From an uncultured Dehalococcoidales bacterium (lineage in GTDB: Bacteria > Chloroflexota > Dehalococcoidia > GIF9 > UBA5629), in NCBI GenBank assembly GCA_964437795.1, contig CAYTIC010000008.1, positions 61,407 to 125,406 on the forward strand: a DNA stretch of 64,000 bases, read 5' to 3'. Below, one piece after another: positions 1,522 to 18,900 of the stretch. The translations under genes were made by a program, and so were the position numbers. The notes beneath the pieces were generated by a model that was not told the DNA's origin, made no database searches, and saw only the letters and a list, made by a program, of their open reading frames with translations. Numbering within the stretch: the stretch's first letter is position 1; the number at the start of each line of letters is the position of its first letter.

Positions 1522-1597
1522 GGGCGATTAGCTCAGCGGTTAGAGCACCTGTCTTACACACAGGGGGTCACTGGTTCAAATCCAGTATCGCCCACCA
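1522..1597 (+). tRNA. tRNA-Val (anticodon TAC). Its 3-prime 45 nt act as the att core that is repeated downstream.
   Basis: Anticodon loop CTTACAC, T-loop GGTTCAAATCC, and CCA encoded. The stretch from the anticodon loop to the 3-prime end recurs at 14761, 16941 and 18648. Confidence 0.85.
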
Positions 1598-1703
1598 TCC
1601 ACAAAAAACCCTGACCGATGCCTTTCTTCCTCACCGCGTTTTGTATATGTAAGTTTCAGCTGGAGCGTCAAGGAAAGCGTCAGAGATATTGGATAATCTA
1701 GTA

Positions 1704-2636
1704 TCATTGCAGTAATCGTGTCACAAGTGCAGCACTCGCCACGATGCCCAACACTGAGCATGCCCCCGGTAGTCCAACTAAGTACGCCAGTCCGTAAGGG
1801 CCCAAATCAACACCAGCAGAACAATTGGCAACTCCCAGCATAGCAAGCGTTCCTAGCAACATAGCGAAGAAAAGGAAACCCACAGTAAAATAGAACCTAG
1901 GAAGAACTAGCTCTCTGAATCTTTTTATGCGTTCTGCCTCGAATATCCACGGGGATTTCTGAATCTCATTGTGTAGCGCGATCAAAGACGAGGATTGGTT
2001 TTCATAAACTGCATCGGTATCAAGTGCATTTACTATCCGATCGATAACACTATCCATTTCCAATATAAGTTTAGATGGCTGAGCAAAATATGTTTCCCAC
2101 GTTTTTATTGCAGCTTCTTTTGTTGTCTTGTCGATATTGTAAAGTGGCTGTGTCTGCCATTTTCTTAAGTAACGAGGAGGATACTTGGAGGTATTATAAT
2201 GCGAGGCAAGCTCCTTAATCGCCCATAGCTTTCCTAACATTATCCTGTTTTCTTTTGCCTGCTTATCTTTCTTTTTCTCTATCTTCTCATTATTTACGAT
2301 TATCAACCATTTATTATAGAAAACATCCAATCGCACTTGATCTAGCCGCTGACTGCTTTCATCAAATCGTCGCATGTAGGCCTCAACTTTATCTAAAACC
2401 AGCGTTTCACGACCTGTAATGTGCTGTAACCTGAATACTGTTCCCGCTATTGAAGCCGCAAAGAATGCTGCCGCAACCTGTGTCTGGGTTCTTAAGAACC
2501 ACACGGCATTGTCTTGGCAGATATCAGGTAGCCACTTAATTGCATACACAACAAAAAAGCTGGTTACTGGGACAACGACAAGCATAATTACAGCTTCAAG
2601 CCAGTCGTTCGTCCTATCTTGCATTTGGTTCCTCAT
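1704..2636 (-). CDS. Hypothetical membrane protein with two N-terminal and two C-terminal TM helices and a coiled-coil middle.
   Basis: 310-aa ORF with hydrophobic helices at both ends. It sits 40 bp downstream of, and co-directional with, the AlpA/excisionase-like gene. Confidence 0.45.
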   Translation of the reverse strand: MRNQMQDRTNDWLEAVIMLVVVPVTSFFVVYAIKWLPDICQDNAVWFLRTQTQVAAAFFAASIAGTVFRLQHITGRETLVLDKVEAYMRRFDESSQRLDQVRLDVFYNKWLIIVNNEKIEKKKDKQAKENRIMLGKLWAIKELASHYNTSKYPPRYLRKWQTQPLYNIDKTTKEAAIKTWETYFAQPSKLILEMDSVIDRIVNALDTDAVYENQSSSLIALHNEIQKSPWIFEAERIKRFRELVLPRFYFTVGFLFFAMLLGTLAMLGVANCSAGVDLGPYGLAYLVGLPGACSVLGIVASAALVTRLLQ

Positions 2637-2678
2637 CTCTTCTTGTATCTAATTCAAGTTCATTTCTTGATCATCTGC

Positions 2679-2903
2679 TCAGTGGCTTTTTATCCATTTA
2701 ACCAGGTCATCCTTTAGAAAGACCCGTTTCTTGCCTATCTTGTGAGACGGTAAGCCAGACTCCATGAGTTTGTATATCGTCTGGTGGCTAACCCCCAGGA
2801 ACTCCTGGGCCTCAGTAAATGTAAAGAATATACGCTCTATCTTTTTATCCGGTTTAGCTCTTTTCATACTTAACCCTTTGAGATGATGGTATAATGCTGC
2901 CAA
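2679..2903 (-). CDS. Excisionase/AlpA-family helix-turn-helix DNA-binding protein (copy 1)
   Basis: RIFFTFTEAQEFLGVSHQTIYKLMESGLPSHKIGKKRVFLKDDLVKWIK matches the excisionase-family DNA-binding domain pattern. It is paralogous to 4037-4228. Confidence 0.6.
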   Translation of the reverse strand: MAALYHHLKGLSMKRAKPDKKIERIFFTFTEAQEFLGVSHQTIYKLMESGLPSHKIGKKRVFLKDDLVKWIKSH

Positions 2904-2975
2904 TCATTAGGCACAAATAGACAATTATAGATGATTATTGACAGTTAATTATAACGAGCTTAGAATTGGTTTTGC

Positions 2976-3329
2976 ATGGCAGCAAGTGCAGCAGGAAACA
3001 AAATGAAGTGCTACAACCATCCCGAGTACGATTCTGTCGCTACCTGTTTAAAGTGCAGTCAACCTATCTGCGAGATATGCTACTTGGGAGCCAGGGATCA
3101 TGCAATCTGCCGGACGTGCTGGGACAAGATCACACTGGAAGATCAACTACAGAGAAATAAAGAAAGGCAGGAGCTATTATCAAAAAGGAAAAGCGAGGAA
3201 CTTAATATCTCGCAGGTTACGGGCACAGCGCTGGCAGTGTTTGCACTGAGCCTGGTTGTTATATGCGCGAACCAAATGCTATCGATTGCGCAGAAGATGT
3301 TGAATGCTCTGAGAGCTAATGACAATTAA
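2976..3329 (+). CDS. B-box/zinc-ribbon-like small protein with a C-terminal TM helix. The start is possibly the ATG at 3003.
   Basis: Cys/His cluster CYNHPEYDSVATCLKCSQPICEICYL...HAICRTCW, followed by a hydrophobic segment. Confidence 0.35.
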   Translation: MAASAAGNKMKCYNHPEYDSVATCLKCSQPICEICYLGARDHAICRTCWDKITLEDQLQRNKERQELLSKRKSEELNISQVTGTALAVFALSLVVICANQMLSIAQKMLNALRANDN

Positions 3330-3393
3330 TGCGGGATTATATTGTTCATATAGGGGTTAGGGGGCTTGAAGCTATTTTTACATATTTAGGTAG

Positions 3394-3663
3394 TTAGCCA
3401 CGTCTTTTTTTTGATAGGGTAGCCAATATTATAAATACGAATGGCAATATAGCCGCGAAACCTACCAGATTCCATCCATCGTTGGCTGTTTGTCCAATAA
3501 CAATTGCCAGGCCCGATATGACCACAGCTCCTACAAGTCCCATTAAGGATAGCCACCCGGTATCCTGCATACTGTTGGCGATAATACGATCCTGTTTTCT
3601 CAGATGTTTCTGGATCGTTTTCAGGGATATTGGCCTACCTTTTTTCTTTTCTTTCATTTTCAT
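3394..3663 (-). CDS. Small membrane protein
   Basis: 89-aa ORF with a Lys-rich N-terminus and two hydrophobic helices. Low confidence. Confidence 0.3.
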   Translation of the reverse strand: MKMKEKKKGRPISLKTIQKHLRKQDRIIANSMQDTGWLSLMGLVGAVVISGLAIVIGQTANDGWNLVGFAAILPFVFIILATLSKKRRG

Positions 3664-4036
3664 CTCCTTGCTATTAGTCTATCTCAAACTTCAAAATAAT
3701 GCAAACATTTGTTCTATTATATAACATGAGGTGATTTTATAAACAATTTAATAGACGAGTTGAACAAAATTTTATAGAAAAAAGCTAAGCAGCCATTGTC
3801 GATGGTAAATTGGAGATGACTATTGATACTTGGACTATGATAATTTCACCACACTTTTTTGTGATGAACGTAATGAACCTAAAGATTAGAGTCGGTTGTC
3901 TTGAAATGCACATAAACAATGATTGTTATTTTGTTCCCGCCACCGCTATCACCCTTGCATCCTATCTCTGATAAAGCATCGTCTGCGGTTCTTACCTCTC
4001 ATGCGTTAGGGCATGTGTCTTGCGCCCATATGCCAA

Positions 4037-4228
4037 TTAATGTCCCTTCTTCCAGTCAGCCACATCCTCCTTCAGGAACACGATCTTCATGCCTATCCTG
4101 TGGTATGGTAGCCCGGACTTCATCAGCTTGCGCAGCATATACCTGCTGACGGACAATTGATCCATCGTCTCATTGAACGTGAAGAAAATCCGCTCTGTAC
4201 GTTTAGACCGTCCCTGTCCGTCCATCAT
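4037..4228 (-). CDS. Excisionase/AlpA-family helix-turn-helix DNA-binding protein (copy 2)
   Basis: RIFFTFNETMDQLSVSRYMLRKLMKSGLPYHRIGMKIVFLKEDVADWKK is paralogous to 2679-2903. Confidence 0.6.
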   Translation of the reverse strand: MMDGQGRSKRTERIFFTFNETMDQLSVSRYMLRKLMKSGLPYHRIGMKIVFLKEDVADWKKGH

Positions 4229-4440
4229 GTCTGACTAAAAATGGTATATGAAACGGGGATAAATGGAAAGCTACGATGAGCAATGAGATGAGGGATAGAA
4301 GCCGGGGTAGGGGTGGCCTGAATCATGGCATTAATTGTTACAAATCATAACTACCCAAATCACAAACACGGACTTGTTCCCTTCGCATATAGGGAGCATC
4401 AAGGGAAGCTTCAGGGGAAAAGGAGCTGATGCGATGAGTC

Positions 4441-4845
4441 TCAGGGACTCTTGCTCTTATGCTTGGCGTTGCCATGTCCCATGTGTTTAGATAATGGCTC
4501 TTCACATTGGTGGACGACATTTCCTGTGACGGGATCGGTTATCACTTCACTATACCAATCATGCTCCCTATCGATCACCCTGCTAAGATGCATCCACTTA
4601 TAAATCTTTCGAAACAGGTCAGCTCCTGAAACTTCTTCTATGAAGGGCTTCTTGTCACCTTGGTGCTTAGCTTTCATGCCTGCCCTAGTTGTTATTCCAA
4701 TACACACATGAGATGTGACTTTAAAATGTCTCGAGGTGGAACCACACACAGGGCAGGGAGTACGCTGACTCGGTTGGATATCGCTTCTTTCCCTCAGTAC
4801 CAAGCTGCATTTACCGCACTTCACGATTGCATTGTCGTCTGTCAC
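4441..4845 (-). CDS. Zinc-ribbon protein. It is co-transcribed downstream of the RM gene and may act as an accessory or controller.
   Basis: A CxxC...CxxC motif (KCGKCS...CPVCGS). There is a 27-bp gap after the RM ORF on the same strand. Confidence 0.4.
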   Translation of the reverse strand: MTDDNAIVKCGKCSLVLRERSDIQPSQRTPCPVCGSTSRHFKVTSHVCIGITTRAGMKAKHQGDKKPFIEEVSGADLFRKIYKWMHLSRVIDREHDWYSEVITDPVTGNVVHQCEEPLSKHMGHGNAKHKSKSP

Positions 4846-4872
4846 CGGCCTCCCATAACCTTCAGCTTCTGA

Positions 4873-7482
4873 CTAGTAGGATTCAAGCAGTTCCTTTACC
4901 TCTTCTGGTAGCGTTGTTAGACCTTCGACTTCGAGGGCTATTGCCGTGGTTCTATTCCGTAGCTGAGCTCTAGTCTGCACGGTCTCTCTTGTTTCTATGG
5001 CTATCCTCTGGCAAACCTGCGCATCTTTCGGAATCGGCAGCAACACTTCGAAAAGGCGTTTGCCCAATGTATCGATGATATCGCGTGTGAACTGCTTTGC
5101 TCTCATTTGCCGGCGGACGATGGGGGCATTCAGAAGGGCAAGCAATAGGTAGGGATCAAGCTCATCCTTTTTATTCACACGAATCTTATAGATGCCGCCG
5201 CAGTATAGTATTTTGACGTCGTGCTCCGTCAGTATGCAGGAGATGCCGACGAGATAAGTACCATCACGGACAACGAAGATGTCTTCTGCTTGCACATCTT
5301 GCTTGAGCCGATAGCTCTCGTAAAGCTCGATGCTGACATTCTGCTTGGGATCGGTCTTGAGTTCCCAATTCGAGATGTCGGAGGTGCGTATGAACGGGAT
5401 TGGCCCCGTGCCATACGCCATCTTTCCTATTTCTATTCCCGTCTTCCATGAGATGACTTTTTGTTGAACGAGGTCGGCCAAAGATATTAATTTATGCGTC
5501 GAAGCCAATGCTTCGAGATCGCTCTCCAGCTTTGGATCGTAATATTTAGGTATAAATATGTTATTTCTGATATCTTTAATGTGGTTGACAAAGCCAAGTC
5601 TATCCCGCTCCGGGTTCTTTCCATATTTGTAAATGTCGTTGAATCGCTCAGCAACGTGTGGGATATCATCCAGCAGCATCTTCCTCCCAAATTTGTCGAT
5701 ACGATATGTTGGATTTGCCCTGGAATCATGTCCACACCACTTGACGTCAGCCATGAAGATATCGTAGTTCTCTCCTCTGGTTGGTGGCGAGTTCTCAAGG
5801 AACATGACGCAGACTTTTGCATGGGTACCACCTTTGCCACTTGTCTTAAAAAGAGCCTCCGGCATGGAGACTATTCCCTTTATTTTTACGTTACGGCAAA
5901 GATAATTGACAACATATTCGTACGTTGGCATTCCAAAGACAGCTTCTGGGAGGACGATACCCATTCTGCCGCCAGGCTTCAAAAGTTGGAGGCACCTCTC
6001 GAGGAAGATGATCTGAGGTGGTTGGTCTTCATGAATTGCAGTGGTCTGGTTTATTTGTCCCGTGTCCCTATTGAGCTTCCATTTATGCCCAAGTTTATAT
6101 TGCGATAGGAGGCATTCTTCCTTCACGACGATTTTCTTCCCCATAGGAGGATTTGTCAGGAGGACATCGAATGCTCCTAATCCGACTCTCTCTTGCATCA
6201 CTGGCGGCCAATCACGCGGCAAGACAAGACTATTCTCACAAAAGACGCCGCCTCGACCATCACCTACTATTGCCATGTATGCTTTTGTCACTTTAGCGAG
6301 AAAGCTATCTTTGTCGATGCCAGTGAAATAACGTGTTGCTACTTCTACTTCCCGTTTAAACAGTTGTCGCTCGCTCCAGCCCTTTTTCTGCGCTTGTGCT
6401 TTAAGTCCAGCCCAAACGTGCTCCAGAGCCACGATCAAGAACCCACCTGATCCGCAGGCAGGATCGGCGATGCTTTCCCCAGCTTGAGGATCAAGGATGT
6501 CTACCATCATCTTTATCACGTTCCGTGGAGTGAAGAACTGCCCTTCGCTGCCTCTCAGAGCTGGTCCAATAAATACCTCAAAGGCATCTCCGACAGCGTC
6601 TCTGTCCGCTTCCATGATAGAGTAGTTCTGTAGTTCTCCGACGACATATAGGAGACTGTCTGCATCTAGTTTGATCTTCTCCTCCGGCGAGAATACATCG
6701 TCGAATGTCGCTATTTTTACCTTCTCAAATAACTCTAGGATTCGTTTTTGCACTGCTGTTGCATTCTCTCCGATCCCTGCGCGGAATTGGACCATATCCT
6801 CTGGGCCGCATGTTTGTTCGTCGAGTATCTTGCAGAACAATATGCTGATTATCTCTTGAGCCAGCGCTTCGTCACGCGTTATGCCAGTAGTCATGCCCGC
6901 GAGATGATTACGGATATCACGGAAAATCACCTTCAGATTTGACGGTTTTGTTAGGTCTTTACGTTTAAAAAGTCCGATGTCTTCTACGCGCTGCCCTTTA
7001 CGCGGAATGTTTGGTAGATCTTTCCACTCGATATGGCCGTCTGTGTGGCGTATCTTGAGTATGTAGGCGTGCTCGTGACCATTGTACCACGCACCTATGG
7101 TCGCTGGGCTCATCTCAAGATACAGCTTCAACTGGGCTATGCCATCTCGTCGATTTTTTTGCTTGCACTCCACGATCGTCGTCAGTTTCGACTCTATATG
7201 GTCAGAAGATTTGAAGACAGCTATATCAACGGGGTAGGATTTCTTTTCATCTGACGGACGCTTGCGGACGTGGAACTGAGGATGAGTCTGGATTTGGTTT
7301 TTATCGTAGCCGTAGTCTTCGACCAACCTCCGGGCGAATATCTGCACTGCTTCGATCTCCTCAGCAGTGGCCTTAGCTTCTATACCTGAGATATAATCGA
7401 TGACGTAGCCGGATTTAGGTTGCGGATCGGATTGACTGGCATCCGGGACAAGTTGGCTGACTATCTTCTTGCTACGACTCAT
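4873..7482 (-). CDS. Single-chain restriction-modification enzyme (Type IIG/IIB-like). It has an N-terminal PD-(D/E)xK nuclease-like domain (HSDR_N-like), a gamma-class N6-adenine DNA methyltransferase and a C-terminal HsdS-like target-recognition domain.
   Basis: Nuclease-like motif VDIAVF...IVECK. MTase motif I FFTPRNVIKMMVDILDPQAGESIADPACGSGGFL and motif IV TNPPMG. The C-terminal about 200 aa resemble a Type I specificity TRD. The internal ATG at 7482 (MSRSKK) is the likely start. No separate hsdR or hsdS gene is nearby. Confidence 0.65.
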   Translation of the reverse strand: MSRSKKIVSQLVPDASQSDPQPKSGYVIDYISGIEAKATAEEIEAVQIFARRLVEDYGYDKNQIQTHPQFHVRKRPSDEKKSYPVDIAVFKSSDHIESKLTTIVECKQKNRRDGIAQLKLYLEMSPATIGAWYNGHEHAYILKIRHTDGHIEWKDLPNIPRKGQRVEDIGLFKRKDLTKPSNLKVIFRDIRNHLAGMTTGITRDEALAQEIISILFCKILDEQTCGPEDMVQFRAGIGENATAVQKRILELFEKVKIATFDDVFSPEEKIKLDADSLLYVVGELQNYSIMEADRDAVGDAFEVFIGPALRGSEGQFFTPRNVIKMMVDILDPQAGESIADPACGSGGFLIVALEHVWAGLKAQAQKKGWSERQLFKREVEVATRYFTGIDKDSFLAKVTKAYMAIVGDGRGGVFCENSLVLPRDWPPVMQERVGLGAFDVLLTNPPMGKKIVVKEECLLSQYKLGHKWKLNRDTGQINQTTAIHEDQPPQIIFLERCLQLLKPGGRMGIVLPEAVFGMPTYEYVVNYLCRNVKIKGIVSMPEALFKTSGKGGTHAKVCVMFLENSPPTRGENYDIFMADVKWCGHDSRANPTYRIDKFGRKMLLDDIPHVAERFNDIYKYGKNPERDRLGFVNHIKDIRNNIFIPKYYDPKLESDLEALASTHKLISLADLVQQKVISWKTGIEIGKMAYGTGPIPFIRTSDISNWELKTDPKQNVSIELYESYRLKQDVQAEDIFVVRDGTYLVGISCILTEHDVKILYCGGIYKIRVNKKDELDPYLLLALLNAPIVRRQMRAKQFTRDIIDTLGKRLFEVLLPIPKDAQVCQRIAIETRETVQTRAQLRNRTTAIALEVEGLTTLPEEVKELLESY

Positions 7483-7871
7483 CTTTGTATATCCTAATGC
7501 CCGTCTGTTGCTACAGTCTTCTATATTTATGCACCAGTTGTCAAGCGCACTATTCCCTACATGGTGCGACAACACTGCCCTCGGTCTTCAAGACAGGGGG
7601 CACGATCAAGGGGCATGTTTGTGACGCTGGTTTGGCGATGAGGAAGTGACGGTCTTCCTGGCAAAAAACCGTCAGTAATTAAATTGGGCTGTTGATGGAC
7701 AGGTATCCTTCCTACCTGGGGTGGCCTCGATCATCGGAGGGTAGTATCTATCGCAACCATAGGCCGAGCACACACCGGGATTGCTTCCTCGAAAAAGGCG
7801 ACATAAACGCGTAGAACCGCTGGATATGCCGGGTTTAAAATGCCGATAAAATGCCGACGAGGTGAAAGATC

Positions 7872-8156
7872 GTGGAAAAAGATATAGTGTTAATCGAATG
7901 GATCGACAGCAGGGGCACGGAGAGGTGGGAATACCTCGACGAGATAGAGCCGATGCTGCCCGGCGAATGCCTTTCGGTGGGGTTCATCATCGAGGGCAAC
8001 AGCGATTATACAACAATAGCAATGGCGGTCACCGATACCCAGGTGCTTGCCCGGATGACAATACCGGCAGGCTGCATCAAAAGCGTAAAGAATCTTGGTA
8101 CTTCATCTGGCAGTAACCGCGATGCGGATAGAAAATGCCCTTATAACCGCAATTGA
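7872..8156 (+). CDS. Hypothetical protein
   Basis: A GAGGTG ribosome-binding site lies 7 nt upstream of a GTG start. No recognisable domain. Confidence 0.35.
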   Translation: MEKDIVLIEWIDSRGTERWEYLDEIEPMLPGECLSVGFIIEGNSDYTTIAMAVTDTQVLARMTIPAGCIKSVKNLGTSSGSNRDADRKCPYNRN

Positions 8157-8172
8157 CAGCAGCTACCGATAA

Positions 8173-8394
8173 TTAGTGGTTGATGTTGATGCCGTCGTTG
8201 CGGATCACGTCCATATGGCTTTCCAGCACAGCTTGCTTTTGCTCAACGGTGGTAATGCGGGCGTTCATGACATAGAAGAGGGCCAGCACCAATATGAGGG
8301 TTATGATCTGTATCACGATGCCTGCTACTCGTAGGGCAGAGAGTGTCTTCTTATCCACAGTAGCCATATTATAACTAATCAACAGCGTAGACAC
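8173..8394 (-). CDS. Small membrane protein
   Basis: 73 aa with one strong TM helix (VAGIVIQIITLILVLALFYV). Confidence 0.3.
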   Translation of the reverse strand: MSTLLISYNMATVDKKTLSALRVAGIVIQIITLILVLALFYVMNARITTVEQKQAVLESHMDVIRNDGININH

Positions 8395-8416
8395 TCAATT
8401 GGTTGTTAGTGTTAGG

Positions 8417-8437
8417 CCGTCTACACTGTCCACAGTG
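8417..8437. repeat. Inverted copy of the 9-bp GTAGACAGT-type repeat (two units)
   Basis: CTACACTGTCCACAGTG is the reverse complement of TGTGGACAGTGTAGACGG. Confidence 0.6.
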
Positions 8438-8690
8438 ACCAGCTCGCCGCAGAACTTAACGCAGTCATGTGGTGATGTCCGACCGCTGCCTTTCATGGTG
8501 GGTTGGTCGGGCCTCAACTTTTTGCGCGGATGGCACCGGTGGTGGCCAAGGCGTGGCCGGGGGCAGGGGTAGGGGTGTGGTCGGTATGGGGCGGAGCGGG
8601 TCAAGACATCCCATGCTTGCAGGGTCTTAACGCAATAACAAAAGTCCCCTTGAACCCGTATTGGAAACAAGGGGACTTTTGTCCGGTGCC

Positions 8691-8846
8691 TTATTGTTTA
8701 TTTACAAATGTCTCGCGATGGTCATCAATGCACACCAGTTACAATTCATGTCCCACCAGGCGCAGCGCTTCTGGATGCACTCTTTGTAACTTTCATCTGC
8801 TTCATCAGGTAACGCCAGTATAGCCGATGCTAATAACGGGCATACC
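8691..8846 (-). CDS. Small Cys-rich protein, 51 aa, not in the ORF track
   Basis: Hand translation gives MVCPLLASAILALPDEADESYKECIQKRCAWWDMNCNWCALMTIARHLYKQ. A GGAGGTG site lies 4 nt upstream of the ATG. Confidence 0.3.
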
Positions 8847-8897
8847 ATGTTTCACCTCCTGTATTTATTTTGTGGTTAGTAACGTATGTATAAACGT

Positions 8898-8920
8898 CGT
8901 AGACAGTGTAGACGGTGTGA
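8898..8920. repeat. Direct copies of the 9-bp GTAGACAGT-type repeat (iteron-like), immediately 3-prime of the primase-helicase gene
   Basis: GTAGACAGTGTAGACGGTGTGA. The same unit is tandemly repeated at 11654-11689. Confidence 0.6.
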
Positions 8921-8966
8921 GCGCCGTGGCGAGTGCCGCATCTTCAGCGTTCACACCACAGTCCAG

Positions 8967-10775
8967 TCAGCTGACGCTGTTTATGCCGTCCATGTTGTCC
9001 ATGTCATCCGTATGCTTTGGTAAGTCCATGATTGTATATTTGTTGTCGTTGTCTTTGTCTAGCAGTCCGGACTTAAGCATACTGGAGATCAGGCTCCTGA
9101 TTGTGCTTGGGTTACGTCCCAATTCGGTAGCTATTTCTTTGGGCGTGATCGGGCCTTTCTCCCGGATGACTTCCAATATGGCCTTTCTTTCATCGCTCAT
9201 GAAGTAGTCTTCAGCGTTACCAAGCACAGTCCACGACGCATCTTTGTTATGTTCGACAGCTATCTCCTGCTCTTCTCTGATATCGCGGCCAGTAATGTAA
9301 AGCTTAGCTAGTCTACCTTTGACTCGCTGAAGTACGAACACGTTGTCGACCCCCGCAGTGAGACCAAACGAGCCGCTGACTGCCTCCAACGGGTCTTCGG
9401 ATTTTTGTTTACGAAGATGGTGGACACCGAGTATTGCGATATTTCTCCTCGAAGCCAACTCCTGAAGGGGCCTCATCGCATCGTAATCTTCGGCATAGAC
9501 CGTTGATCTACCTTTACGTATGATAACCCGTTGCATTACATCGATGACTATCAATTTGGTATCTGGGTGTTCATCGAGGAATAGTTCGATCTGTTCGACG
9601 CAGCCCGTTTCCATGTTCGGCCACCTTATCTCAAAGTACAAGTTATCTGGGTCGGCATAGTTCTCTCCTTCTAAATCCCATGTGCCATCCTCCTGCTTTA
9701 TCAGCTTACCTTTAATTCCGATTTGCGTATTACGTTCCTGCAGCCGCCTTAGATTGTCTTCCAAGGCTAGATACAATACGTCTCCAGAACACGGTAAATT
9801 TGGAGCTATCCCTGCTTTAAACGGCCCGGAGAAACTCAGAAAGTCACGCCCCAGGGCCACACTTCTTGCTATCAATAAGGCTAGCCAGCTTTTGCCAACC
9901 TTGGGCCTGCCAGCTAAGATTGAAAGCCCCACTGGCAGCAAACCTTCGTAAACCCACTGCGTTTCCGGCAGTTCCATCACAGCAAGTTCTGCCGCTGAGA
10001 TGATATTGGGCTGGTAGAAATCCCTGACGACAATACCTGCATATTTCCAAGCACTCTCTACCTTGGCCATTGCTTCAGCCTCGGGGAAAGGCGGGGTACA
10101 TTTCGCTGCTGCTATTAACACAAGATACTCGATCGCAGGACGATCAAGCCCCTTACTTTTGAGGAAGCAAGCATATCGAAAGAGCTTGTCATCCCGTTGC
10201 CCTTCTGGTACGCCATCTAGCACGGTCACAAGGGCTCTATCCTGTGTCTTAGCAGCCTTCATCGGATTGATCAGCTCCTTAGGGAACTCGGCAAGTTCTA
10301 TCTCATTAGGAGCCTTGCCCTCCGCAAAACGATATTTTTTACCGGTTTCCGGATGCACGCTCGGGGGAGCGGCCACGATCCCACCCTCGGCGCGGATATC
10401 AACATGAGGCAAAATATTAGTGCCTGTCTTAACTCCGCTGTCCGGGTAACGATAGTAATAGTGCCAGCCACCACCGCCAGTTTCGACTGTAATAGTGTCC
10501 GGCAAGGTGATTCCCGCCTGCTTGAGGCTTTCCTTTCCTTCTAATCCGTCTACATCAACTACGGCCAATCCGGACACTGGCCCGGTCACTATGCCGATGT
10601 TGGGAGTTCGGCCTGACCCCCACCAGACTTTGTGTTGCGCGGATTCACTACGTTGAGTCTGATACCGCTTCCATCTGCCGCGCGGCCTCTTGCCATCCAG
10701 TGGTATCACGCACCATTTAAGCCACCTATACTGGTTAACAACGTGAGGAAGAATACTGCTATCCCAATTAGCCAT
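8967..10775 (-). CDS. Plasmid/phage-type replication protein: an N-terminal bifunctional primase-polymerase (prim-pol) domain, a RecA-fold AAA_25/RepA-like helicase domain and a C-terminal winged-helix region.
   Basis: AVVDVDG and GGGGWHYYYRY prim-pol motifs. Walker A GRPKVGKSWLALLIA. A C-terminal DNA-binding-like region. Confidence 0.75.
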   Translation of the reverse strand: MANWDSSILPHVVNQYRWLKWCVIPLDGKRPRGRWKRYQTQRSESAQHKVWWGSGRTPNIGIVTGPVSGLAVVDVDGLEGKESLKQAGITLPDTITVETGGGGWHYYYRYPDSGVKTGTNILPHVDIRAEGGIVAAPPSVHPETGKKYRFAEGKAPNEIELAEFPKELINPMKAAKTQDRALVTVLDGVPEGQRDDKLFRYACFLKSKGLDRPAIEYLVLIAAAKCTPPFPEAEAMAKVESAWKYAGIVVRDFYQPNIISAAELAVMELPETQWVYEGLLPVGLSILAGRPKVGKSWLALLIARSVALGRDFLSFSGPFKAGIAPNLPCSGDVLYLALEDNLRRLQERNTQIGIKGKLIKQEDGTWDLEGENYADPDNLYFEIRWPNMETGCVEQIELFLDEHPDTKLIVIDVMQRVIIRKGRSTVYAEDYDAMRPLQELASRRNIAILGVHHLRKQKSEDPLEAVSGSFGLTAGVDNVFVLQRVKGRLAKLYITGRDIREEQEIAVEHNKDASWTVLGNAEDYFMSDERKAILEVIREKGPITPKEIATELGRNPSTIRSLISSMLKSGLLDKDNDNKYTIMDLPKHTDDMDNMDGINSVS

Positions 10776-10794
10776 TGTATGAATCTCCTTTTTA

Positions 10795-11001
10795 TTAATT
10801 CTTAGCCATTAGATTTGTCTTGTACCAAATAAGCCGATCTGTATCTTCAGCCATTTCAAGTATAGATTCGATTGTGATAGATATCTGACCGCCCGAGCGC
10901 ACAAAGTCCAGTAGTCCCAATGTCGCCATCAGAGCAACCTGGGCAGCAGACACATTGAGCACCCGAGCCGTTGCTTCGACATCTATGCAGTATATTTCGC
11001 T
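10795..11001 (-). CDS. Small hypothetical protein, probably starting at a GTG with an AAGGAGG site, immediately upstream of the primase gene
   Basis: AAGGAGG-6nt-GTG. A 20-bp gap to the primase start on the same strand. Confidence 0.35.
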   Translation of the reverse strand, partial: SEIYCIDVEATARVLNVSAAQVALMATLGLLDFVRSGGQISITIESILEMAEDTDRLIWYKTNLMAKN

Positions 11002-11209
11002 CACAATAAACCTCCTTAATAACTCGTGTTTTGATTTCAATCGACCTTTAATATTCTTAAGGCATTGACAGCACCTGCGCAGGGTGTTATGCTTGAGACA
11101 TGACGATAATACGCTATCATTGTTTATTTCTATACAACTCTCTAATAATAATTATACAGGAAGATAAATCGCGTGTCAAGAGCGAATATGAACGTGAAGT
11201 AGGAGTTTT

Positions 11210-11641
11210 ATGAAAAAAGTCATATATAGCGATGAAATGAAGTACTTTGCTCTAAGTAAGCGAAGGGAAGGATTAGGTTGGTGGGATATTAGGAGGGCGG
11301 TGCAAGATAAGTTCAAGTTAGAGCCGATTCCAACCATCCGTGCGATGCAGCGATGGGAGGAGGTTCTTAATATCGATGAGCTAAGCGAGTCTGTAGCGAA
11401 GAACCTGGATATCAAGGCTCAGGCATCAGCAAGCACTGGGATGGTTGATTTAGCTGAGACTCTGTTGCATAGCTTATGGGGGACTCGGCATTTGGGCGAA
11501 CAAGTGGAGTATGATGGATGGAAGCATTTTCTATCGACTTTAGAACGCATCTGGGGCACCGAGAAGCTACGCGGATATGTCGGGAAATATCTGGCAGAGC
11601 GTGAAGGGCAGCCTGATTATTCACCCTCGTTGCTTGAATGA
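11210..11641 (+). CDS. Hypothetical protein (island gene)
   Basis: An AGGAG site upstream of the ATG. 143 aa with no recognised domain. Confidence 0.4.
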   Translation: MKKVIYSDEMKYFALSKRREGLGWWDIRRAVQDKFKLEPIPTIRAMQRWEEVLNIDELSESVAKNLDIKAQASASTGMVDLAETLLHSLWGTRHLGEQVEYDGWKHFLSTLERIWGTEKLRGYVGKYLAEREGQPDYSPSLLE

Positions 11642-11653
11642 TATACAAACCCT

Positions 11654-11689
11654 GTAGACAGTGTAGACAGTGTAGACAGTGTGAATGAC
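11654..11689. repeat. Tandem 9-bp repeat (TGTAGACAG x3 plus a partial unit) upstream of the integrase gene. It is either iterons or recombinase arm-type sites.
   Basis: TGTAGACAGTGTAGACAGTGTAGACAGTGTGAATGA. There are additional single units at 11725-11738 and an inverted partial at 11761-11770. Confidence 0.7.
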
Positions 11690-11887
11690 ATAATGCGCCC
11701 ACGATGGAGTAACTGCCCATCTATGGTGTAGACAGCCATTTTCTGTGTGTGTGTCCATGCTGTCTATAGTGTTTATACGTCCTGCTTTCTCATCCACCAA
11801 ACCGGCTGCCCTTCGAATGCTATTTCTAAACCTTCCGCCTCGAAGTACAATGTTTTTCAAGTACGGAAAGACGCTGGAGGTTATACA

Positions 11888-13021
11888 ATGCGAGGCTATA
11901 TCAGAAAACGAGGCAAAAACTACCAGCTGACCATATGGGTAGGTAAAAAGCCCGACGGGCGACCGTCGAGGCATTTCGAAACAATACGAGGAAGCAAAGC
12001 CGATGCACAGAGGAGACTCAGGGAGCTTCTCAGCGAGATCGACCGGAACACCTACACTGCTCCCAGCCATATGACGCTTGCACAGCTTCTCGACCAGTGG
12101 CTGGATGGATATTGCCGGACCAAGTGCTCTATGCGTACACAGGACAGCTATGAGTACCTTGTCCGGTGCCACCTGGTTCCGGCTATGGGGCATATCAAGC
12201 TTGATGAGCTGCAACCGCGCATTATCCAGAACTACTATGGCAAAGCATGTGAAAATGTGTCCAATCGCACGGTCTTACATACTCATAGAGTTCTGAGTCA
12301 GGCATTGAAGTGGGCTGTGAGACAAGGGTATGCAGGCAAGAACCCCGCTGAGCTAACTGACCCGCCCACACCACTGTATAGGAACATGACCACTTTATCG
12401 TCTGCTGAGGTTAGCCTCCTGCTGGAACATGCACAGGGTAATGACTATTATCCGGTCATCTATACGGCTATCTCCACCGGGCTGAGACGAAACGAGATAC
12501 TTGGCCTACGCTGGCGAGACGTTGATCTCCTCATGGCAAGCATATCGGTCAGCCAGGTTCTGTATAAAGGCAGGGGTAGAATCGAGTTCAAAGAGCCGAA
12601 GACTGAGCACAGCAGGCGCAGGGTAGCTATGACACCCAAGCTTGCCATCTATCTGAGGGAGCATAAAGAACGGCAAGAACAGTCAATGAGGAGGCCGCTC
12701 ACTCTTGATGACCTCGTATTCAGCCACCCCGATGGCACTCCTCTTGATCCCAGCACGGTAAGCCACAGCTTCAACAAGATCGTGAAAGCAGCGGGGCTTA
12801 AGGTCAGGTTTCATGACCTCCGGCATTCCTGTGCAAGCCTAATGCTGAGAGAGGGAATCCATCCCAAGATTGTCAGTGAGATGCTGGGTCATTCGAGCGT
12901 TGCGATCACGCTAGATATATACAGCCACGTTACCCCTGGACTTCAGGAAGCCGCTGCAAAAAGCCTAAACGAAGTGCTACCTGCTGGCGTAGCGGATGCG
13001 ATGCAAAACAGCGTCAAGTAG
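11888..13021 (+). CDS. int: Tyrosine-type site-specific integrase
   Basis: GGAGG site upstream of the ATG at 11888. A core-binding/SAM-like N-terminal region. The catalytic region has HDLRHSCASLML (H-x-x-R) and the tyrosine in LDIYSHV. Confidence 0.9.
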   Translation: MRGYIRKRGKNYQLTIWVGKKPDGRPSRHFETIRGSKADAQRRLRELLSEIDRNTYTAPSHMTLAQLLDQWLDGYCRTKCSMRTQDSYEYLVRCHLVPAMGHIKLDELQPRIIQNYYGKACENVSNRTVLHTHRVLSQALKWAVRQGYAGKNPAELTDPPTPLYRNMTTLSSAEVSLLLEHAQGNDYYPVIYTAISTGLRRNEILGLRWRDVDLLMASISVSQVLYKGRGRIEFKEPKTEHSRRRVAMTPKLAIYLREHKERQEQSMRRPLTLDDLVFSHPDGTPLDPSTVSHSFNKIVKAAGLKVRFHDLRHSCASLMLREGIHPKIVSEMLGHSSVAITLDIYSHVTPGLQEAAAKSLNEVLPAGVADAMQNSVK

Positions 13022-13054
13022 CAGACACAGATAATGACATCGACCCTTAAACGG

Positions 13055-13987
13055 TTACCTTGTATCTACAGGTGTCCCTAGCATCTGTTGGCTGTTGGCT
13101 GCAAATGACGCGTACTGGCATTCATGCTGGAGAAACAGGCCCAACTGGATCAATGATATATGGTGGTTCCGCATGTCATTGGCAGTGATCACTATGGTCA
13201 GCTTGTCTGCAAACGTCTTTTCGGAGCAGGCGGCAATGAACGATTTGATCATTTCATGTATTACCTCCTCTCTGGTTTGCTTTAGGCGTCCGAAACCTGT
13301 CCCAAGCACGGGCGCAACGAGGGACTCTTTCAAACCTCGTTGCCCAACAAACACCCACAGAGAGGCAAGGGCCTGTTGCAGGTCGTCGAATGTCACTGAC
13401 GCTACTCCATATTGGTTTATGTGCGCTATTGCGACGAAATAACCTGTACGATCTTTGGGATTAAGTCGAACGCAAGTCCCTATAGGGTATCTTCTCGATT
13501 TTCCTATACGTGTTCCAGCAAGGTCTCCGCCTACCAGTCCGCTCAGACAAGCGGACAATTCGGCATCAAGCTGGGTTTCATCACCATAGAAACGTCTTGT
13601 GAAAATTCCTTGGACACTTGCCTCAGCTATCATTTCCCTCGATATCCGTGTGTCAAAAGTAGTGTTCGAACCAACGATGAAGGCCCCCGAGAATCCAAGA
13701 AGATCACCGATAGCGATCTCGATAGTTGTATCGCGGCCATTGAGCTTGTGGGATACTGTCAACTGAGGTCTCCGCATAAGTCCCGCGATAATCAAGCCAA
13801 TGAGTCCAAAGTATATCCACTGACTACGAAGCCAGTCCGGGAGCTTTGTATTAGCAAAGAAAAACGTCGTGATCTCAACGAGAAGCCACAGCGCTCCGAA
13901 GGAACTGAGTATGGCTATCAGCGTTTTCCAGGAAATGATGTTCCTAAGCCATGTGATTATCCAGTACCAGGTTCTATTAATTATCAT
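13055..13987 (-). CDS. 2TM plus macro-like-domain protein, similar to ThsA of Thoeris type II
   Basis: Two N-terminal TM helices, then a domain carrying FIVGSNTTFDT and APVLGTGFGRL segments that resemble macro-domain motifs. It overlaps the upstream TIR gene by 4 bp. Confidence 0.45.
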   Translation of the reverse strand: MIINRTWYWIITWLRNIISWKTLIAILSSFGALWLLVEITTFFFANTKLPDWLRSQWIYFGLIGLIIAGLMRRPQLTVSHKLNGRDTTIEIAIGDLLGFSGAFIVGSNTTFDTRISREMIAEASVQGIFTRRFYGDETQLDAELSACLSGLVGGDLAGTRIGKSRRYPIGTCVRLNPKDRTGYFVAIAHINQYGVASVTFDDLQQALASLWVFVGQRGLKESLVAPVLGTGFGRLKQTREEVIHEMIKSFIAACSEKTFADKLTIVITANDMRNHHISLIQLGLFLQHECQYASFAANSQQMLGTPVDTR

Positions 13988-14487
13988 AGTCCCAAACGTG
14001 TGTATACTTCAGGTTTATAGTAGAATGGCCCGGTTTTACCTTCCTTACGGTAGGTTTCGTCACTGCTTGGCCAATTATCAAGAGCATATTGCATGATTGC
14101 TGCATTAAATGGTATATGAACCGCTAAAGCTTCTTTTGCCAAGGTCGGGCAACGTTCCTCATCCATTGCACGTTGCCCGTTAAGGTTCACTACTATTATG
14201 GGTAGAGTCCTAGATATGGCCTGTTCTATCTCCCATCTTACAAATTTCATGAGGTAACGAGTCCGCTCACCTGCTAATAAAATAAAGATTTTGGAATTCC
14301 GCATTCGCTCGGCCAATTGAGCTTTTACGGATGCTTCCTGACTCGAGTCTCTAGCTGTGTTAAGGTCGTGAGCATTATAGAAATTGAAGTCTATGCCGTC
14401 ATTTTGTTTCCATGCTTGCATAAGCCGATAATATGCCATGTCTATATCACCGTCGAACGAGACAAAAGTTTTATTACGGTACGGCAT
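13984..14487 (-). CDS. TIR-like (DUF1863/MTH538-type) domain protein, similar to ThsB
   Basis: An AGGAGG site 7 nt upstream of the ATG at 14487. KTFVSFDGDIDMAYYRLMQAW...FNFYNAHD...IFILLAGERT...FVRWEIEQA...LPIIVVNL fits the TIR-like fold with a conserved Glu. Confidence 0.6.
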   Translation of the reverse strand: MPYRNKTFVSFDGDIDMAYYRLMQAWKQNDGIDFNFYNAHDLNTARDSSQEASVKAQLAERMRNSKIFILLAGERTRYLMKFVRWEIEQAISRTLPIIVVNLNGQRAMDEERCPTLAKEALAVHIPFNAAIMQYALDNWPSSDETYRKEGKTGPFYYKPEVYTRLGL

Positions 14488-14691
14488 TATAATTGACCTC
14501 CTGAAGGATTTTGGTTGCGCTATCAAAGAAGTAATAGAAACATATAAATTTTGCTAATGCAGTCAGTGGGTTAAACCCATGCGCCCGCCAATTTGTCATG
14601 CCTCCAATGAAGTGCATGCGATTATTATAATACAGAATTATGTCGCATAGATAGCTCGCCAGAGTATTTGTATCTATTTGAAGCTCAAGCG

Positions 14692-14807
14692 TCAAACGAG
14701 CGCCAACCGGAAGTAGCCTCATATTGAGGTGCATGTAAGTGTATAGAAGTCGCTGATCTCTTACACACAGGGGGTCGCTGGTTCAAATCCAGCATCGCCC
14801 ACCATCC
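14692..14807 (+). repeat. 116-bp direct repeat whose 3-prime 45 nt are a copy of the tRNA-Val(TAC) 3-prime end (att-like site, copy 2)
   Basis: TCTTACACACAGGGGGTCGCTGGTTCAAATCCAGCATCGCCCACCATCC differs from tRNA-Val 1553-1600 at two positions. The upstream 70 nt are shared with copy 3. Confidence 0.8.
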
Positions 14808-14930: not shown

Positions 14931-15608
14931 TTATCCGCGGAAGTCGGTTGATAGGAAACGTTCTATTCCATCGATCATATCTATGACCACTTCTTTGGTG
15001 TATTCGTCGAATTTTCCATGAGCTGCTGAATTACCGATATCTAGCCATGCTTGAATAAAACGCCACTGCGGTTGAGGGTACTTGTCTAGTTTTTTCAACT
15101 CATCATTTAGTGCTGATGCTTTTTGTTCAGCATCAATGTTTTCGCTTCGTGCTAACCGTTTGAGCGTATCTTCCAGTACAGTTCTAGCAAGAACAGCAGC
15201 AGGGTCTTTATATCCGTTTTGAGCCAGGTGCTTTGCTTGCTCCAAGATGGAATCAAAAAGGTCTCCAGCTATGATAAACTCCTGCCCGAGCAAATACCCA
15301 TTTTCTAGATCTGATAAAGCACCCTGTAATAAACCAACGAATTCGTAGACCTGGGAAGCAACTTCGATGCTTTTGGCCCCATCTTTTGGTATCAACTCTT
15401 CAAGATGATGGAATTGGGGGCTTTGTCTCCCAAATACCAGCTCAATAATATTTCGCGTACTGGCTAACCAACCGTGAAGTCTGACTTTGTCTTCACCTTG
15501 TATGTAACGAAAACCGTCAGATGTCTTTTCAAGTTTTGCTATAGTCTTGCCCTCAATGACCAACTCATTAAGCCGATCTGCATATCTCCGGTTTTTCATA
15601 CTAAGCAT
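14931..15608 (-). CDS. DUF4145-like domain protein (tentative), a candidate defence-associated protein
   Basis: The C-terminal region ...LARTVLEDTLKRL...WLDIGNSAAHGKFDE... resembles DUF4145, a domain seen fused to restriction enzymes. Confidence 0.4.
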   Translation of the reverse strand: MLSMKNRRYADRLNELVIEGKTIAKLEKTSDGFRYIQGEDKVRLHGWLASTRNIIELVFGRQSPQFHHLEELIPKDGAKSIEVASQVYEFVGLLQGALSDLENGYLLGQEFIIAGDLFDSILEQAKHLAQNGYKDPAAVLARTVLEDTLKRLARSENIDAEQKASALNDELKKLDKYPQPQWRFIQAWLDIGNSAAHGKFDEYTKEVVIDMIDGIERFLSTDFRG

Positions 15609-15748: not shown

Positions 15749-16864
15749 CTATTGTATCTTCATTTTTCGCCCCTTCAAATGGTGCCAGTCTTGGTTAAGA
15801 AGCGCTCCGTATGCCAAAGGATTATGCTGAAATTGTAAGCGATTTTTCCTGCGGTAAATAGAGCGTGAGATAGCTGCTGGGATAGATGCAACGCCAACCC
15901 CCATAGTAATTGGTTCATTAGCTTGAATTCCCACCATCAATGAACCGCTACCTATTATAATTGGGAAGATATCTAAGAGTATTATGTCATGCCATGTTTC
16001 TTTCATATGAGTCGAAATATACTCAATTTCCTGATTCAATTCTTGAATAGTTAATTCTCTTTTTTCGTCACGATCCTTTCGATCAATTAGATTAGCCAGA
16101 TCAATAGATAATCCTTCAATATGGTCACGAAACCGGGCAAGTTCAGCATGATGTTTCCCCTTGAATTTTAAAATCTTACTTAGGCTCAGTTCATCCTTGG
16201 GAAAGGGCATTATGTATTTCAGTATTTCATTTCTCTGGTCAGTACGTTCCCCAACTGATTTTCTATTTCCACCTAGCAGACGAAAACAGGTTTTATTATT
16301 GGTGACAGGAGCACTATCGACTTCAGGAAGGCTACCGATATAAGTAGCAAGATATGTCATGAAAGCATCGGCTACCCATCTATCCATTTCATACCATGGG
16401 TAATCGGTGCTGACCGCTAAATTCATACGTACCAGTTCATCGGCAACAGAACTAAGCTTCTCGGCATGCACAGGGAACCTTTGAGATGCATTCTCTGTGA
16501 TCGGATTTCTTCGACTTTTAATTCTTCTCCTAATGAATTCTATAAAAGGTTTGCCAAACTCATCAGCATTATCAATGAGTTTATGAGGCTCTATGAAGTC
16601 AACTAGTCCTTCCTTCTTGAGTGTGGACATGTGTGGTAGCAGTCTCCGGCGATCATAAGCACACTCAGAAGGTACTATAGAACTTAACCGGTCCCAGTAT
16701 AATAGCATTAGATATAACCAGTCATTATCTGGAAGATTAATATACGGAAAATACAAAGCCTTAGTTCTCATCTCGTTACTGCCTCCGTAGATTAGCCGTT
16801 GCTTAGAAAATATTCTATCTGTTAATTCTTCGTATAGGGTAGTTCCATGTTTCACTATTGTCAA
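15749..16864 (-). CDS. Hypothetical 371-aa protein with no recognisable domain, upstream partner of the DUF4145-like gene
   Basis: Long ORF on the same strand, 140 bp upstream of 14931-15608, lying between att-like repeats 2 and 3. Confidence 0.4.
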   Translation of the reverse strand: MTIVKHGTTLYEELTDRIFSKQRLIYGGSNEMRTKALYFPYINLPDNDWLYLMLLYWDRLSSIVPSECAYDRRRLLPHMSTLKKEGLVDFIEPHKLIDNADEFGKPFIEFIRRRIKSRRNPITENASQRFPVHAEKLSSVADELVRMNLAVSTDYPWYEMDRWVADAFMTYLATYIGSLPEVDSAPVTNNKTCFRLLGGNRKSVGERTDQRNEILKYIMPFPKDELSLSKILKFKGKHHAELARFRDHIEGLSIDLANLIDRKDRDEKRELTIQELNQEIEYISTHMKETWHDIILLDIFPIIIGSGSLMVGIQANEPITMGVGVASIPAAISRSIYRRKNRLQFQHNPLAYGALLNQDWHHLKGRKMKIQ

Positions 16865-16876
16865 CTGCCTCCAAAA

Positions 16877-16991
16877 TCAAACGAGCGCCAACCGGAAGTT
16901 GCCTCATATAAAGGTGTAAGCAGCTACATAGTAGTCGCTGATCTCTTACACACAGGGTGTCACTGGTTCAAATCCAGTATCGCCCACCATC
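16877..16991 (+). repeat. Copy 3 of the 115-bp direct repeat ending in the tRNA-Val(TAC) 3-prime end (att-like)
   Basis: About 88% identical to 14692-14807. It ends ...GTCACTGGTTCAAATCCAGTATCGCCCACCATC. Confidence 0.8.
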
Positions 16992-17170
16992 TAAAAACAA
17001 AATGTCTCAAGTGAATCCTTCCTGTATGCGCTGTGTACATCATCGTTTTACCGGGGGCTTAAGAGGAAATAGTCATGTTGGTAATATCTGATACCAATGT
17101 AAATAATAGATAGCTCCCCAGCTCAACGATGAATAACCGGGGAGCTATTTACCGGATGTTCTTTGACAAA

Positions 17171-18283
17171 CTATAAATGGTTCTTGGGGCTATGCTTGAG
17201 CTCTTTTACTAACTTGGCTACCTTTTTCCATCTGAGTTTTTCATACTGACGCGTGCTGTGCTCCTCCCTTGATGCAAGGTAGCTTACCTCCTTTTGTAAT
17301 TTCCTGTAGCTTTCCAATCTGGATGGGTCAAAATCACCTTGATCGATAGCTGCTTTTACAGCGCAGCCGGATTCGAGGTTGTGGCTGCAATCGCTGAAGC
17401 GGCATCTTTTAGCCAGTGTCTCGATGTCGTGAAAGGCAGCTTGCAGATCTTCTTCTCCTGCCCACATCTGGATCTCTCTCATACCCGGTGTATCGATTAC
17501 CATGCCACCGCCGGGAAGAATGATGAGTTCGCGTTTGGTCGTAGTATGTCGCCCCATGCGGTCATCTTCGCGAACTTCTCCAATCTGCTGTTTCTCTATA
17601 CCAAGCAGGGCATTGATGAGCGCCGACTTCCCAACTCCGGAAGATCCCAGAAAAGCGGCTGTTTTCCCTCTGTTCAGGTAATTTTTAAGGGCATCTAACC
17701 CGATACGTTCCTTGGCGCTGACAGGATGAACTGATATACCAGGAGCAATAGTTTCAATGCTATGGGTATAGATATCAATATCCGTACACAGGTCCACCTT
17801 ATTGAGGACGATTACCGGAGTGGCTCCACTATTCCATGCAAGCGTAAGATACCGCTCAATCCTGCGAAGATTGAAATTTCTGCCGCCGTCCAGACCACTG
17901 ACAATGAAAACTGTGTCTATATTAGCTGAGACGATCTGTTCTTCGGTACGTGCGCCAGCGACTTTTCTGGAAAATTTACTCTTTCTGGGTAGCAAGGCAT
18001 GAATTGTGCATTTCTGTTCATTGATTAATGGTTTAATTACAACCCAATCACCGACAGCCGGATATTGTTTTTCAGCCTTGGCAAGGTGTCGCATTTTGCC
18101 CGTAACCCCAGCAGTTAATTCCCCATATTGACTGTATACCTGAAAAGCACCCTTAAATTCAGAAATGACTCTGGCAGGTACCGAATCGGGGATTTTCAAG
18201 GCGTGGAAGTTTTTCTGAAAAAACGAATCCCATCCAATATCCTGGAGGCTTATTGGCCGGGCATAATTTGAATTTATACTCAA
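17171..18283 (-). CDS. rsgA: Ribosome small-subunit-dependent GTPase A (YjeQ)
   Basis: OB-fold N-terminus, circularly permuted GTPase motifs (LNKVDL, GSSGVGKSALINAL, DTPG) and a C-terminal zinc finger CRFSDCSHNLESGC. Confidence 0.8.
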   Translation of the reverse strand: MSINSNYARPISLQDIGWDSFFQKNFHALKIPDSVPARVISEFKGAFQVYSQYGELTAGVTGKMRHLAKAEKQYPAVGDWVVIKPLINEQKCTIHALLPRKSKFSRKVAGARTEEQIVSANIDTVFIVSGLDGGRNFNLRRIERYLTLAWNSGATPVIVLNKVDLCTDIDIYTHSIETIAPGISVHPVSAKERIGLDALKNYLNRGKTAAFLGSSGVGKSALINALLGIEKQQIGEVREDDRMGRHTTTKRELIILPGGGMVIDTPGMREIQMWAGEEDLQAAFHDIETLAKRCRFSDCSHNLESGCAVKAAIDQGDFDPSRLESYRKLQKEVSYLASREEHSTRQYEKLRWKKVAKLVKELKHSPKNHL

Positions 18284-18647: not shown

Positions 18648-18677
18648 CTGGTTCAAATCCAGTATCGCCCACCATCC
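18648..18677 (+). repeat. Copy 4: the last 30 nt of tRNA-Val(TAC) (att-like fragment)
   Basis: CTGGTTCAAATCCAGTATCGCCCACCATCC is identical to 1571-1600. Confidence 0.75.
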
Positions 18678-18900
18678 AAGGTAAAATTATTCTATTACTA
18701 TATATTCGGTTTTACCAAAACGAATAAATTAATCATTTTTCAACCGTAGTTTTGGTAATGTTATTACCTGCATAACTTGTCTATTTGCATAACAAAGAAC
18801 TGATATGTAATATATTGGATGGGACTTCTGGTTTTTACAAGTGGTGCGAAGGTGATGGACGACTTAAATTCATATATAATTTCTGGCGGGCAATAAGATC

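Follow-up and report, generated by a model that had tools for sequence, protein, structure and literature searches.

A probable type II Thoeris gene pair carried by a tRNA-Val-integrated genomic island in an uncultured Dehalococcoidales bacterium

Results

The window (the whole stretch of DNA that was analysed, 64,000 nucleotides) contains two co-directional genes on the minus strand, thsB (13984-14487) and thsA (13055-13987). The thsB gene begins with ATG and encodes a 167-aa TIR-like protein (PF08937/DUF1863), a predicted signal synthase of the EcThsB2 or 'subfamily 9'-like type, and the thsA gene, recognised from the six-frame ORF listing, PADLOC, and homologues, encodes a 310-aa effector. 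The stop codon of thsB and the start codon of thsA share the 4-bp sequence ATGA (13984-13987), and the junction was read as GGA CTA TGA / ATG ATA ATT. The two overlapping ORFs described in an earlier note on this DNA were found where that note had placed them. All of the peptides quoted there (KTFVSFDGDIDMAYY, FNFYNAHD, FVRWEIEQA, FIVGSNTTFDT, and APVLGTGFGRL) were present in the translations.

In the ORF listing, thsB extends either from a TTG codon (13984-14526) or from the ATG codon (13984-14487). A Shine-Dalgarno sequence, AGGAGG (14497-14502, minus strand), was read from the sequence 9 nt upstream of the ATG at 14487. As all of the 120 closest ThsB homologues begin with MPYRNKT, and nearly all of them are exactly 167 aa long, we assigned the ATG at 14487 as the start of thsB and rejected the longer ORF from the TTG at 14526. 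A promoter scan gave four promoter-like sites against 3.5 expected by chance and no convincing promoter, and a terminator scan gave nothing above chance. A search of plasmid DNA returned only two short matches (75%), both inside thsB.

The upstream gene product had been described in the earlier note as a TIR-like DUF1863 protein of the ThsB kind, and the searches bore this out. ThsB matched Pfam PF08937 (ThsB_TIR, formerly DUF1863) over residues 8-106 (E 3.3e-19), the PADLOC ThsB model PDLC00429 over its full length (1-167/167, E 8.3e-78), and, among the PDB sequences, EcThsB2 (8v6t) from end to end (E 1.6e-34), with an identity of about 41% in a MAFFT alignment. The AF2 model of ThsB had a pLDDT of 78, and its nearest structure was again 8v6t (TM 0.78-0.82). 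NCBIfam gave no model for ThsB or ThsA. The catalytic glutamate, E86, aligned with E89 of EcThsB2 (E99 in BaThsB) and was invariant in 120 of 120 close homologues and in 80 of 80 genomic loci; the earlier note had held that absence of this residue would speak against ThsB. The C-terminal tail (...GPFYYKPEVYTRLGL) is conserved and aligned with that of EcThsB2, Y157 corresponding to Y159 (118 of 120 homologues) and Y162 to Y164 (120 of 120), and the tail blocks had a pLDDT of 90-93 in the model. ThsB therefore has the trait of subfamily 9, a C-terminal tail of approximately 20 residues that folds back on the TIR domain.

Another trait, the active-site tyrosine of ThsB subfamilies 7-9 (Shi et al. 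2024), is absent: residue 8 of ThsB is Phe, where EcThsB2 has its active-site Tyr8. In EcThsB2, Y8 is hydrogen-bonded to the catalytic glutamate (Shi et al. 2024, PMC11204291). Shi et al. regard the active-site tyrosine as characteristic of those ThsB subfamilies that occur exclusively with TM-Macro ThsA, and they report it for BaThsB as well, a proven His-ADPR synthase (PMC11204291). We found Phe8 in 117 of the 120 closest ThsB clusters and in 22 of 80 species loci, most of the others having Tyr, and the Phe8 clade is widespread in environmental MAGs. Of 123 informative representatives of the whole ThsB family at 50% identity, 92 have Tyr and 22 have Phe at position 8; thus, Phe8 recurs as a minority state within a known family and is not a new kind of ThsB.

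The downstream gene product had been read as a protein with two N-terminal TM helices followed by a possible Macro domain, and both parts of this reading held. The membrane module of ThsA covers residues about 20-71 (13775-13930, minus strand); its TM1 (about 20-43) and TM2 (about 57-71) follow an amphipathic helix at residues 2-17. These TM helices were called from hydropathy and the AF2 model only, that is, from hydrophobic segments at about 21-45 and 53-71 (Kyte-Doolittle windows above 1.4) and from modelled helices at 2-17, 20-43, 49-55, and 57-71.

The Macro domain, residues 89-267 (13187-13723, minus strand), is the predicted signal receptor and was identified from PF20016, Foldseek, and residue mapping. 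The earlier note had proposed this domain from weak motif resemblance, and the tests of remote homology and fold clearly favoured it. The only Pfam match of ThsA was PF20016 (ThsA_Macro; E 4.6e-43, positions 1-182 of 183), and the PADLOC ThsA Macro model PDLC00414 matched residues 13-289, nearly the full length (E 7.3e-62), so that PADLOC recognised both proteins of the region. Among the PDB sequences, the C-terminal domain matched only Thoeris ThsA Macro entries (8v6q/8v6r, 9uuz, 8r66, and 8v6s). Homologues of ThsA numbered 265, of which the best 120 all carried PF20016 and were mostly about 307 aa long. The AF2 model of ThsA, built on 40 homologues, had a pLDDT of 85 and a pTM of 0.78, and its top eight PDB matches in Foldseek were EcThsA, BaThsA:His-ADPR, and PcThsA:IAD (8v6q/8v6r, 8r66, and 8v6s; E 5e-16 to 9e-14, target TM-score 0.81-0.85), with the macrodomains of MacroH2A, PARP14, and OiMacroD among the next. 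The C-terminal domain thus falls among nucleotide- or ADPR-binding folds, the lack of which had been named as grounds for abandoning the assignment. The Macro call is strong. There is no need to fall back on the other possibility raised in the earlier note, an uncharacterised membrane effector system linked to TIR.

We also considered whether the Macro domain could be a MacroD-type hydrolase or a DarG-like antitoxin. Both were rejected, as its nearest relatives are ThsA Macro domains and, for the latter, the partner is a TIR protein and not DarT. EcThsA Macro showed no hydrolase activity (PMC11204291), and BaThsA Macro is without the catalytic Asp of MacroD (bioRxiv 10.1101/2024.01.03.573942).

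For the spread of the pair, contigs from one genome per species were scanned with the ThsB alignment, which gave 192 relatives; the best 80 loci were analysed. In 77 of these 80, thsA adjoins thsB, and of the three loci that differ, two or more are cut off at a contig end. In most loci, thsA lies directly downstream of thsB with an overlap of 4 bp or 1 bp. The hosts include Acidobacteriota, Verrucomicrobiota, Bacillota, Bacteroidota, Poribacteria, Gammaproteobacteria, and one methanogen. In the case of the methanogen, the archaeon Methanimicrococcus sp. (L062; JAJDHP010000002.1), the thsB is 62% identical to that of the window and is followed by a Macro-type thsA, which suggests inter-domain transfer of this Thoeris type.

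Among these 80 loci (L001-L080), 72 have a thsA ORF of 260 aa or more, and in all 72 ThsB is closer to its counterpart in the window than the partner ThsA is. The mean identities to the window were 64% for ThsB, 40% for the ThsA Macro domain, and 25% for the TM region; the size of this gap is partly a selection effect because the loci were chosen by ThsB similarity. In type I Thoeris, the ThsB sensors are the more variable partner, the reverse of the pattern here.

The pair lies inside a genomic island at a tRNA-Val(tac) gene (1522-1597, plus strand; ARAGORN and Rfam). By local alignment, the 3' part of this tRNA forms the left boundary, attL (1552-1600, plus strand; repeat family D1), and a direct copy of it, matching at 47 of 49 positions, forms the right boundary, attR (14759-14807, plus strand). 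The first island thus extends from about 1598 to 14807, about 13.2 kb, and thsAB is situated between the tRNA and the 49-nt direct repeat. A tyrosine integrase gene (11747-13021, plus strand; Phage_integrase, E 3.9e-28, and Phage_int_SAM_3) is convergent with thsA, and 33 nt separate its end at 13021 from the stop codon of thsA; the description of the pair as integrase-proximal cargo was therefore correct.

The first island also holds a PrimPol-AAA_25-wHTH replication protein, an HTH_17 protein, and a 900-aa HSDR_N + N6_Mtase fusion (4873-7575, minus strand; PADLOC MTase_II, E 5e-81, and mad2 of MADS, E 5e-46). The fusion is probably an R-M enzyme, either type IIG-like or solitary, and an R-M-type methyltransferase fusion on the same island is typical of defence cargo. 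Two ORFs near it (1704-2636 and 4441-4845) had no family matches. A short iterated repeat of the GTAGACAGT type (family D5) occurs just downstream of the PrimPol gene (8886-8918) and between the ORF at 11210-11641 and the integrase start (11641-11682), and these repeats may be island iterons or regulatory sites.

Further direct copies of the 3' part of tRNA-Val were found at 16944-16997 (51/54) and 18648-18678 (31/31). These repeats point to tandem integration at one tRNA and imply that three integrated elements, or what remains of them, lie in tandem. The 67 nt on the 5' side of the second and third copies (14692-14758 and 16877-16943) are also alike, and the 117-nt stretches including the repeat match at 101 of 117 positions; thus, islands I and II have related right ends. 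The 2.2-kb segment between these two copies contains only a gene for a DUF4145/HEPN-like protein of 225 aa (14931-15608, minus strand; Pfam) and a gene for a DUF6236 protein of 371 aa with one hydrophobic helix at about 292-315 (15749-16864, minus strand). The two could possibly be a small pair of defence or toxin cargo genes. A conserved association of DUF4145 with DUF6236 was not supported, since no contig but an identical one from Logan showed the two together, and DUF4145 did not adjoin DUF6236 in the three metagenomic DUF6236 relatives found. Between the third and fourth copies lies a gene for an RsgA-family ribosome-biogenesis GTPase (17171-18283, minus strand; TIGR00157, 171.7 bits against a cutoff of 100), apparently within an island remnant rather than in the core genome.

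To map the ligand pocket, the published contacts of EcThsA:ADPR and PcThsA:IAD (PMC11204291) and of BaThsA:His-ADPR (bioRxiv 10.1101/2024.01.03.573942) were placed on ThsA. Six residues, D95, N108, D112, I120, G231, and R234, match ligand-binding or loop-stabilising residues of EcThsA/BaThsA. By this mapping, D95 would contact the adenine N6, N108 and D112 would form the loop scaffold, and G231 would belong to the diphosphate loop, and R234 corresponds to R240 of BaThsA, the contact of the histidine carboxylate of His-ADPR, and is kept in 119 of 120 homologues. The distal-ribose contacts are changed, with Q126 in place of N114 (EcThsA) or N133 (BaThsA) and A188 in place of S175 or S194, and so is the adenine-stacking position, with T268 in place of H259 or Y277. 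Of the residues that form the His-ADPR pocket of BaThsA (D100, N133, S194, R240, and Y277), only the first and fourth are therefore kept. Since neither solved complex has Q126, A188, and T268 at these positions, details of the signal, or of how it is bound, could be different.

As a separate observation, the position of R234 is occupied by Gly in about 19 loci, mostly from Bacillota/Clostridia (L023-L026, L028, L029, L032, L034, L037-L039, L042, L048, L050, L053, L054, L068, L073, and L074). Ligand recognition may differ in this ThsA sub-lineage.

Discussion

Our results indicate, with a probability of about 0.9, that thsB and thsA together form an intact type II Thoeris system, a two-gene defence against phages, which the tRNA-Val-integrated genomic island carries as cargo. 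The type II Thoeris pair proposed in the earlier note is supported by the Pfam and PADLOC matches of both proteins, the match of ThsB to 8v6t, and the ThsA Macro domains found as fold neighbours.

By homology to the systems of Bacillus amyloliquefaciens Y2 and E. coli, the following mechanism may be proposed, in which the identity of the signal, the oligomerisation, the membrane effect, and the phage protection are all carried over by analogy. ThsB, a small TIR-like enzyme, would probably be held inactive by its C-terminal tail and become activated upon infection. Using Glu86, it would cleave NAD+ and join the ADP-ribose to an acceptor of the imidazole type, for which free histidine is the likeliest candidate; the product would be His-ADPR or a closely related molecule. 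The signal would then enter the pocket of the cytoplasmic Macro domain of a dimeric ThsA, where D95 would hold the adenine, the G231 loop the diphosphate, and R234 the histidine carboxylate. Ligand binding would lead to open-ended oligomerisation of the Macro dimers and clustering of the N-terminal two-helix modules, by which the membrane would be perturbed, and the infected cell would halt growth or die before the phage cycle is completed.

Precedents exist for several of these steps. BaThsB makes His-ADPR, which binds the Macro domain (bioRxiv 10.1101/2024.01.03.573942), and EcThsA Macro oligomerises on binding its ligand (PMC11204291). A TM-Macro ThsA and a subgroup 9 ThsB2 from E. coli ATCC 25922 suffice on their own for protection against phages, T4 among them (Englert et al. 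2026, bioRxiv 10.64898/2026.01.22.701046). This defence depends on the TM helices and, in ThsB2, on a conserved tryptophan (WxxxE motif), and it is accompanied by growth arrest without NAD+ depletion or standard cell-death markers (bioRxiv 10.64898/2026.01.22.701046). Because of this growth arrest without the standard death markers, a membrane pore followed by cell death may not be the outcome in every system.

With the E. coli type II system of CFT073 (ThsA and ThsB2; PDB 8v6q/8v6r/8v6t; Shi et al. 2024, PMC11204291), the pair shares the same two-protein logic and folds. ThsA consists of two TM helices and a ThsA-type Macro domain (TM-score 0.82-0.85), in which D95, N108, D112, G231, and R234 correspond to D83, N96, D100, G218, and R221 of EcThsA, and ThsB matches EcThsB2 throughout, including the C-terminal tail and the catalytic glutamate. 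It differs in having one ThsB without an EcThsB1-like second TIR gene, in Phe8 against Tyr8 of EcThsB2, in a ThsA Macro domain that is only about 22% identical to that of EcThsA, and in having Q126, A188, T230, G233, and T268 where EcThsA has N114, S175, S217, T220, and H259. In ATCC 25922, thsB2 is inverted, whereas the genes here are co-directional and overlapping.

The type II system of B. amyloliquefaciens Y2, which signals by His-ADPR (PDB 8r66; Sabonis et al., bioRxiv 10.1101/2024.01.03.573942), likewise has one ThsB and one TM-Macro ThsA. The Macro fold is similar (8r66, TM 0.81), and D100 and R240 of BaThsA are D95 and R234 here. ThsB is distant (the likely BaThsB entry, 9uv0, matched with E 4e-6), the active-site Tyr reported for BaThsB is replaced, and N133, S194, and Y277 of BaThsA have become Q126, A188, and T268.

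Type I Thoeris (SIR2-SLOG ThsA, 3'cADPR) resembles the pair in that the work is divided between a ThsB with a TIR domain, acting as sensor/synthase, and a distinct effector, ThsA, that receives the signal. In contrast, ThsA of the window has neither SIR2 nor SLOG, PF20016 being its only Pfam match, and the expected outcome is membrane perturbation and not NAD+ depletion; ThsA Macro domains do not bind 2'/3'cADPR (PMC11204291). The two-TM effectors of CBASS also combine a cytoplasmic ligand sensor with an N-terminal pair of TM helices, which cluster once the ligand is bound, a parallel already drawn in PMC11204291, but their sensor domain and signal chemistry are unrelated, and the likeness is one of analogy and not homology.

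We considered one reading that retains the type II Thoeris architecture and changes the signal: ThsB of the Phe8 clade would make, and the pocket with Q126, A188, and T268 would read, a molecule other than His-ADPR, such as plain ADPR or a different ADPR conjugate formed by base exchange. In vitro, ADPR and IAD are among the several ligands that ThsA Macro domains bind (PMC11204291). Phe8, common to nearly all of the closest homologues, stands in for a Tyr that hydrogen-bonds the catalytic glutamate in EcThsB2 and is reported in BaThsB too, and three pocket contacts are unlike those of both solved complexes. However, the change from Tyr to Phe loses only a hydroxyl, the histidine-carboxylate contact R234 is retained, and Tyr-bearing ThsBs that are 65-71% identical to that of the window pair with similar ThsAs (L015 and L016). 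We further examined the co-variation of Tyr/Phe at ThsB position 8 with N/Q at ThsA position 126 and S/A at position 188. Among the best 80 of 192 loci, the combination was Y,Q,A in 29, F,Q,A in 17, Y,Q,S in 16, and Y,N,S in 5; Q126/A188 is the majority state of the ThsA family in these loci and occurs with Tyr8 ThsBs just as often as with Phe8, so that co-variation was not supported. A signal other than His-ADPR therefore seems unlikely. We hold it similarly doubtful that the Phe8 clade and the Q126/A188/T268 pocket together define a type II Thoeris sub-lineage with a signal chemistry or an activation threshold unlike the His-ADPR paradigm; if such a sub-lineage did exist, TIR synthases of this class could do without the active-site tyrosine.

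The tandem, partly degraded island copies at the same tRNA and the non-significant promoter signal might suggest an old island on which the pair survives only as a remnant, decayed or silent, and no longer works in defence, but this is highly improbable, as both ORFs have the full length of their families (167 aa for ThsB; 310 against about 307 aa for ThsA), both proteins keep every invariant column in the alignments of 29 and 40 homologues, and the strong Shine-Dalgarno sequence and the overlap for translational coupling are kept.

Conclusion

Both proteins of this type II Thoeris pair are already covered by near-full-length PADLOC models and by Pfam domains named after Thoeris, and three ThsA Macro structures and one ThsB structure are already solved among their homologues. 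The pair adds one more natural sequence to the well-populated ThsA/ThsB family. Its value lies in annotation, as it marks the 13-kb tRNA-Val island as a defence island that carries Thoeris II and an R-M-type methyltransferase. The Phe8 variant opens no new question, but it shows that not every ThsB of the TM-Macro-associated lineage has the active-site tyrosine noted for it.
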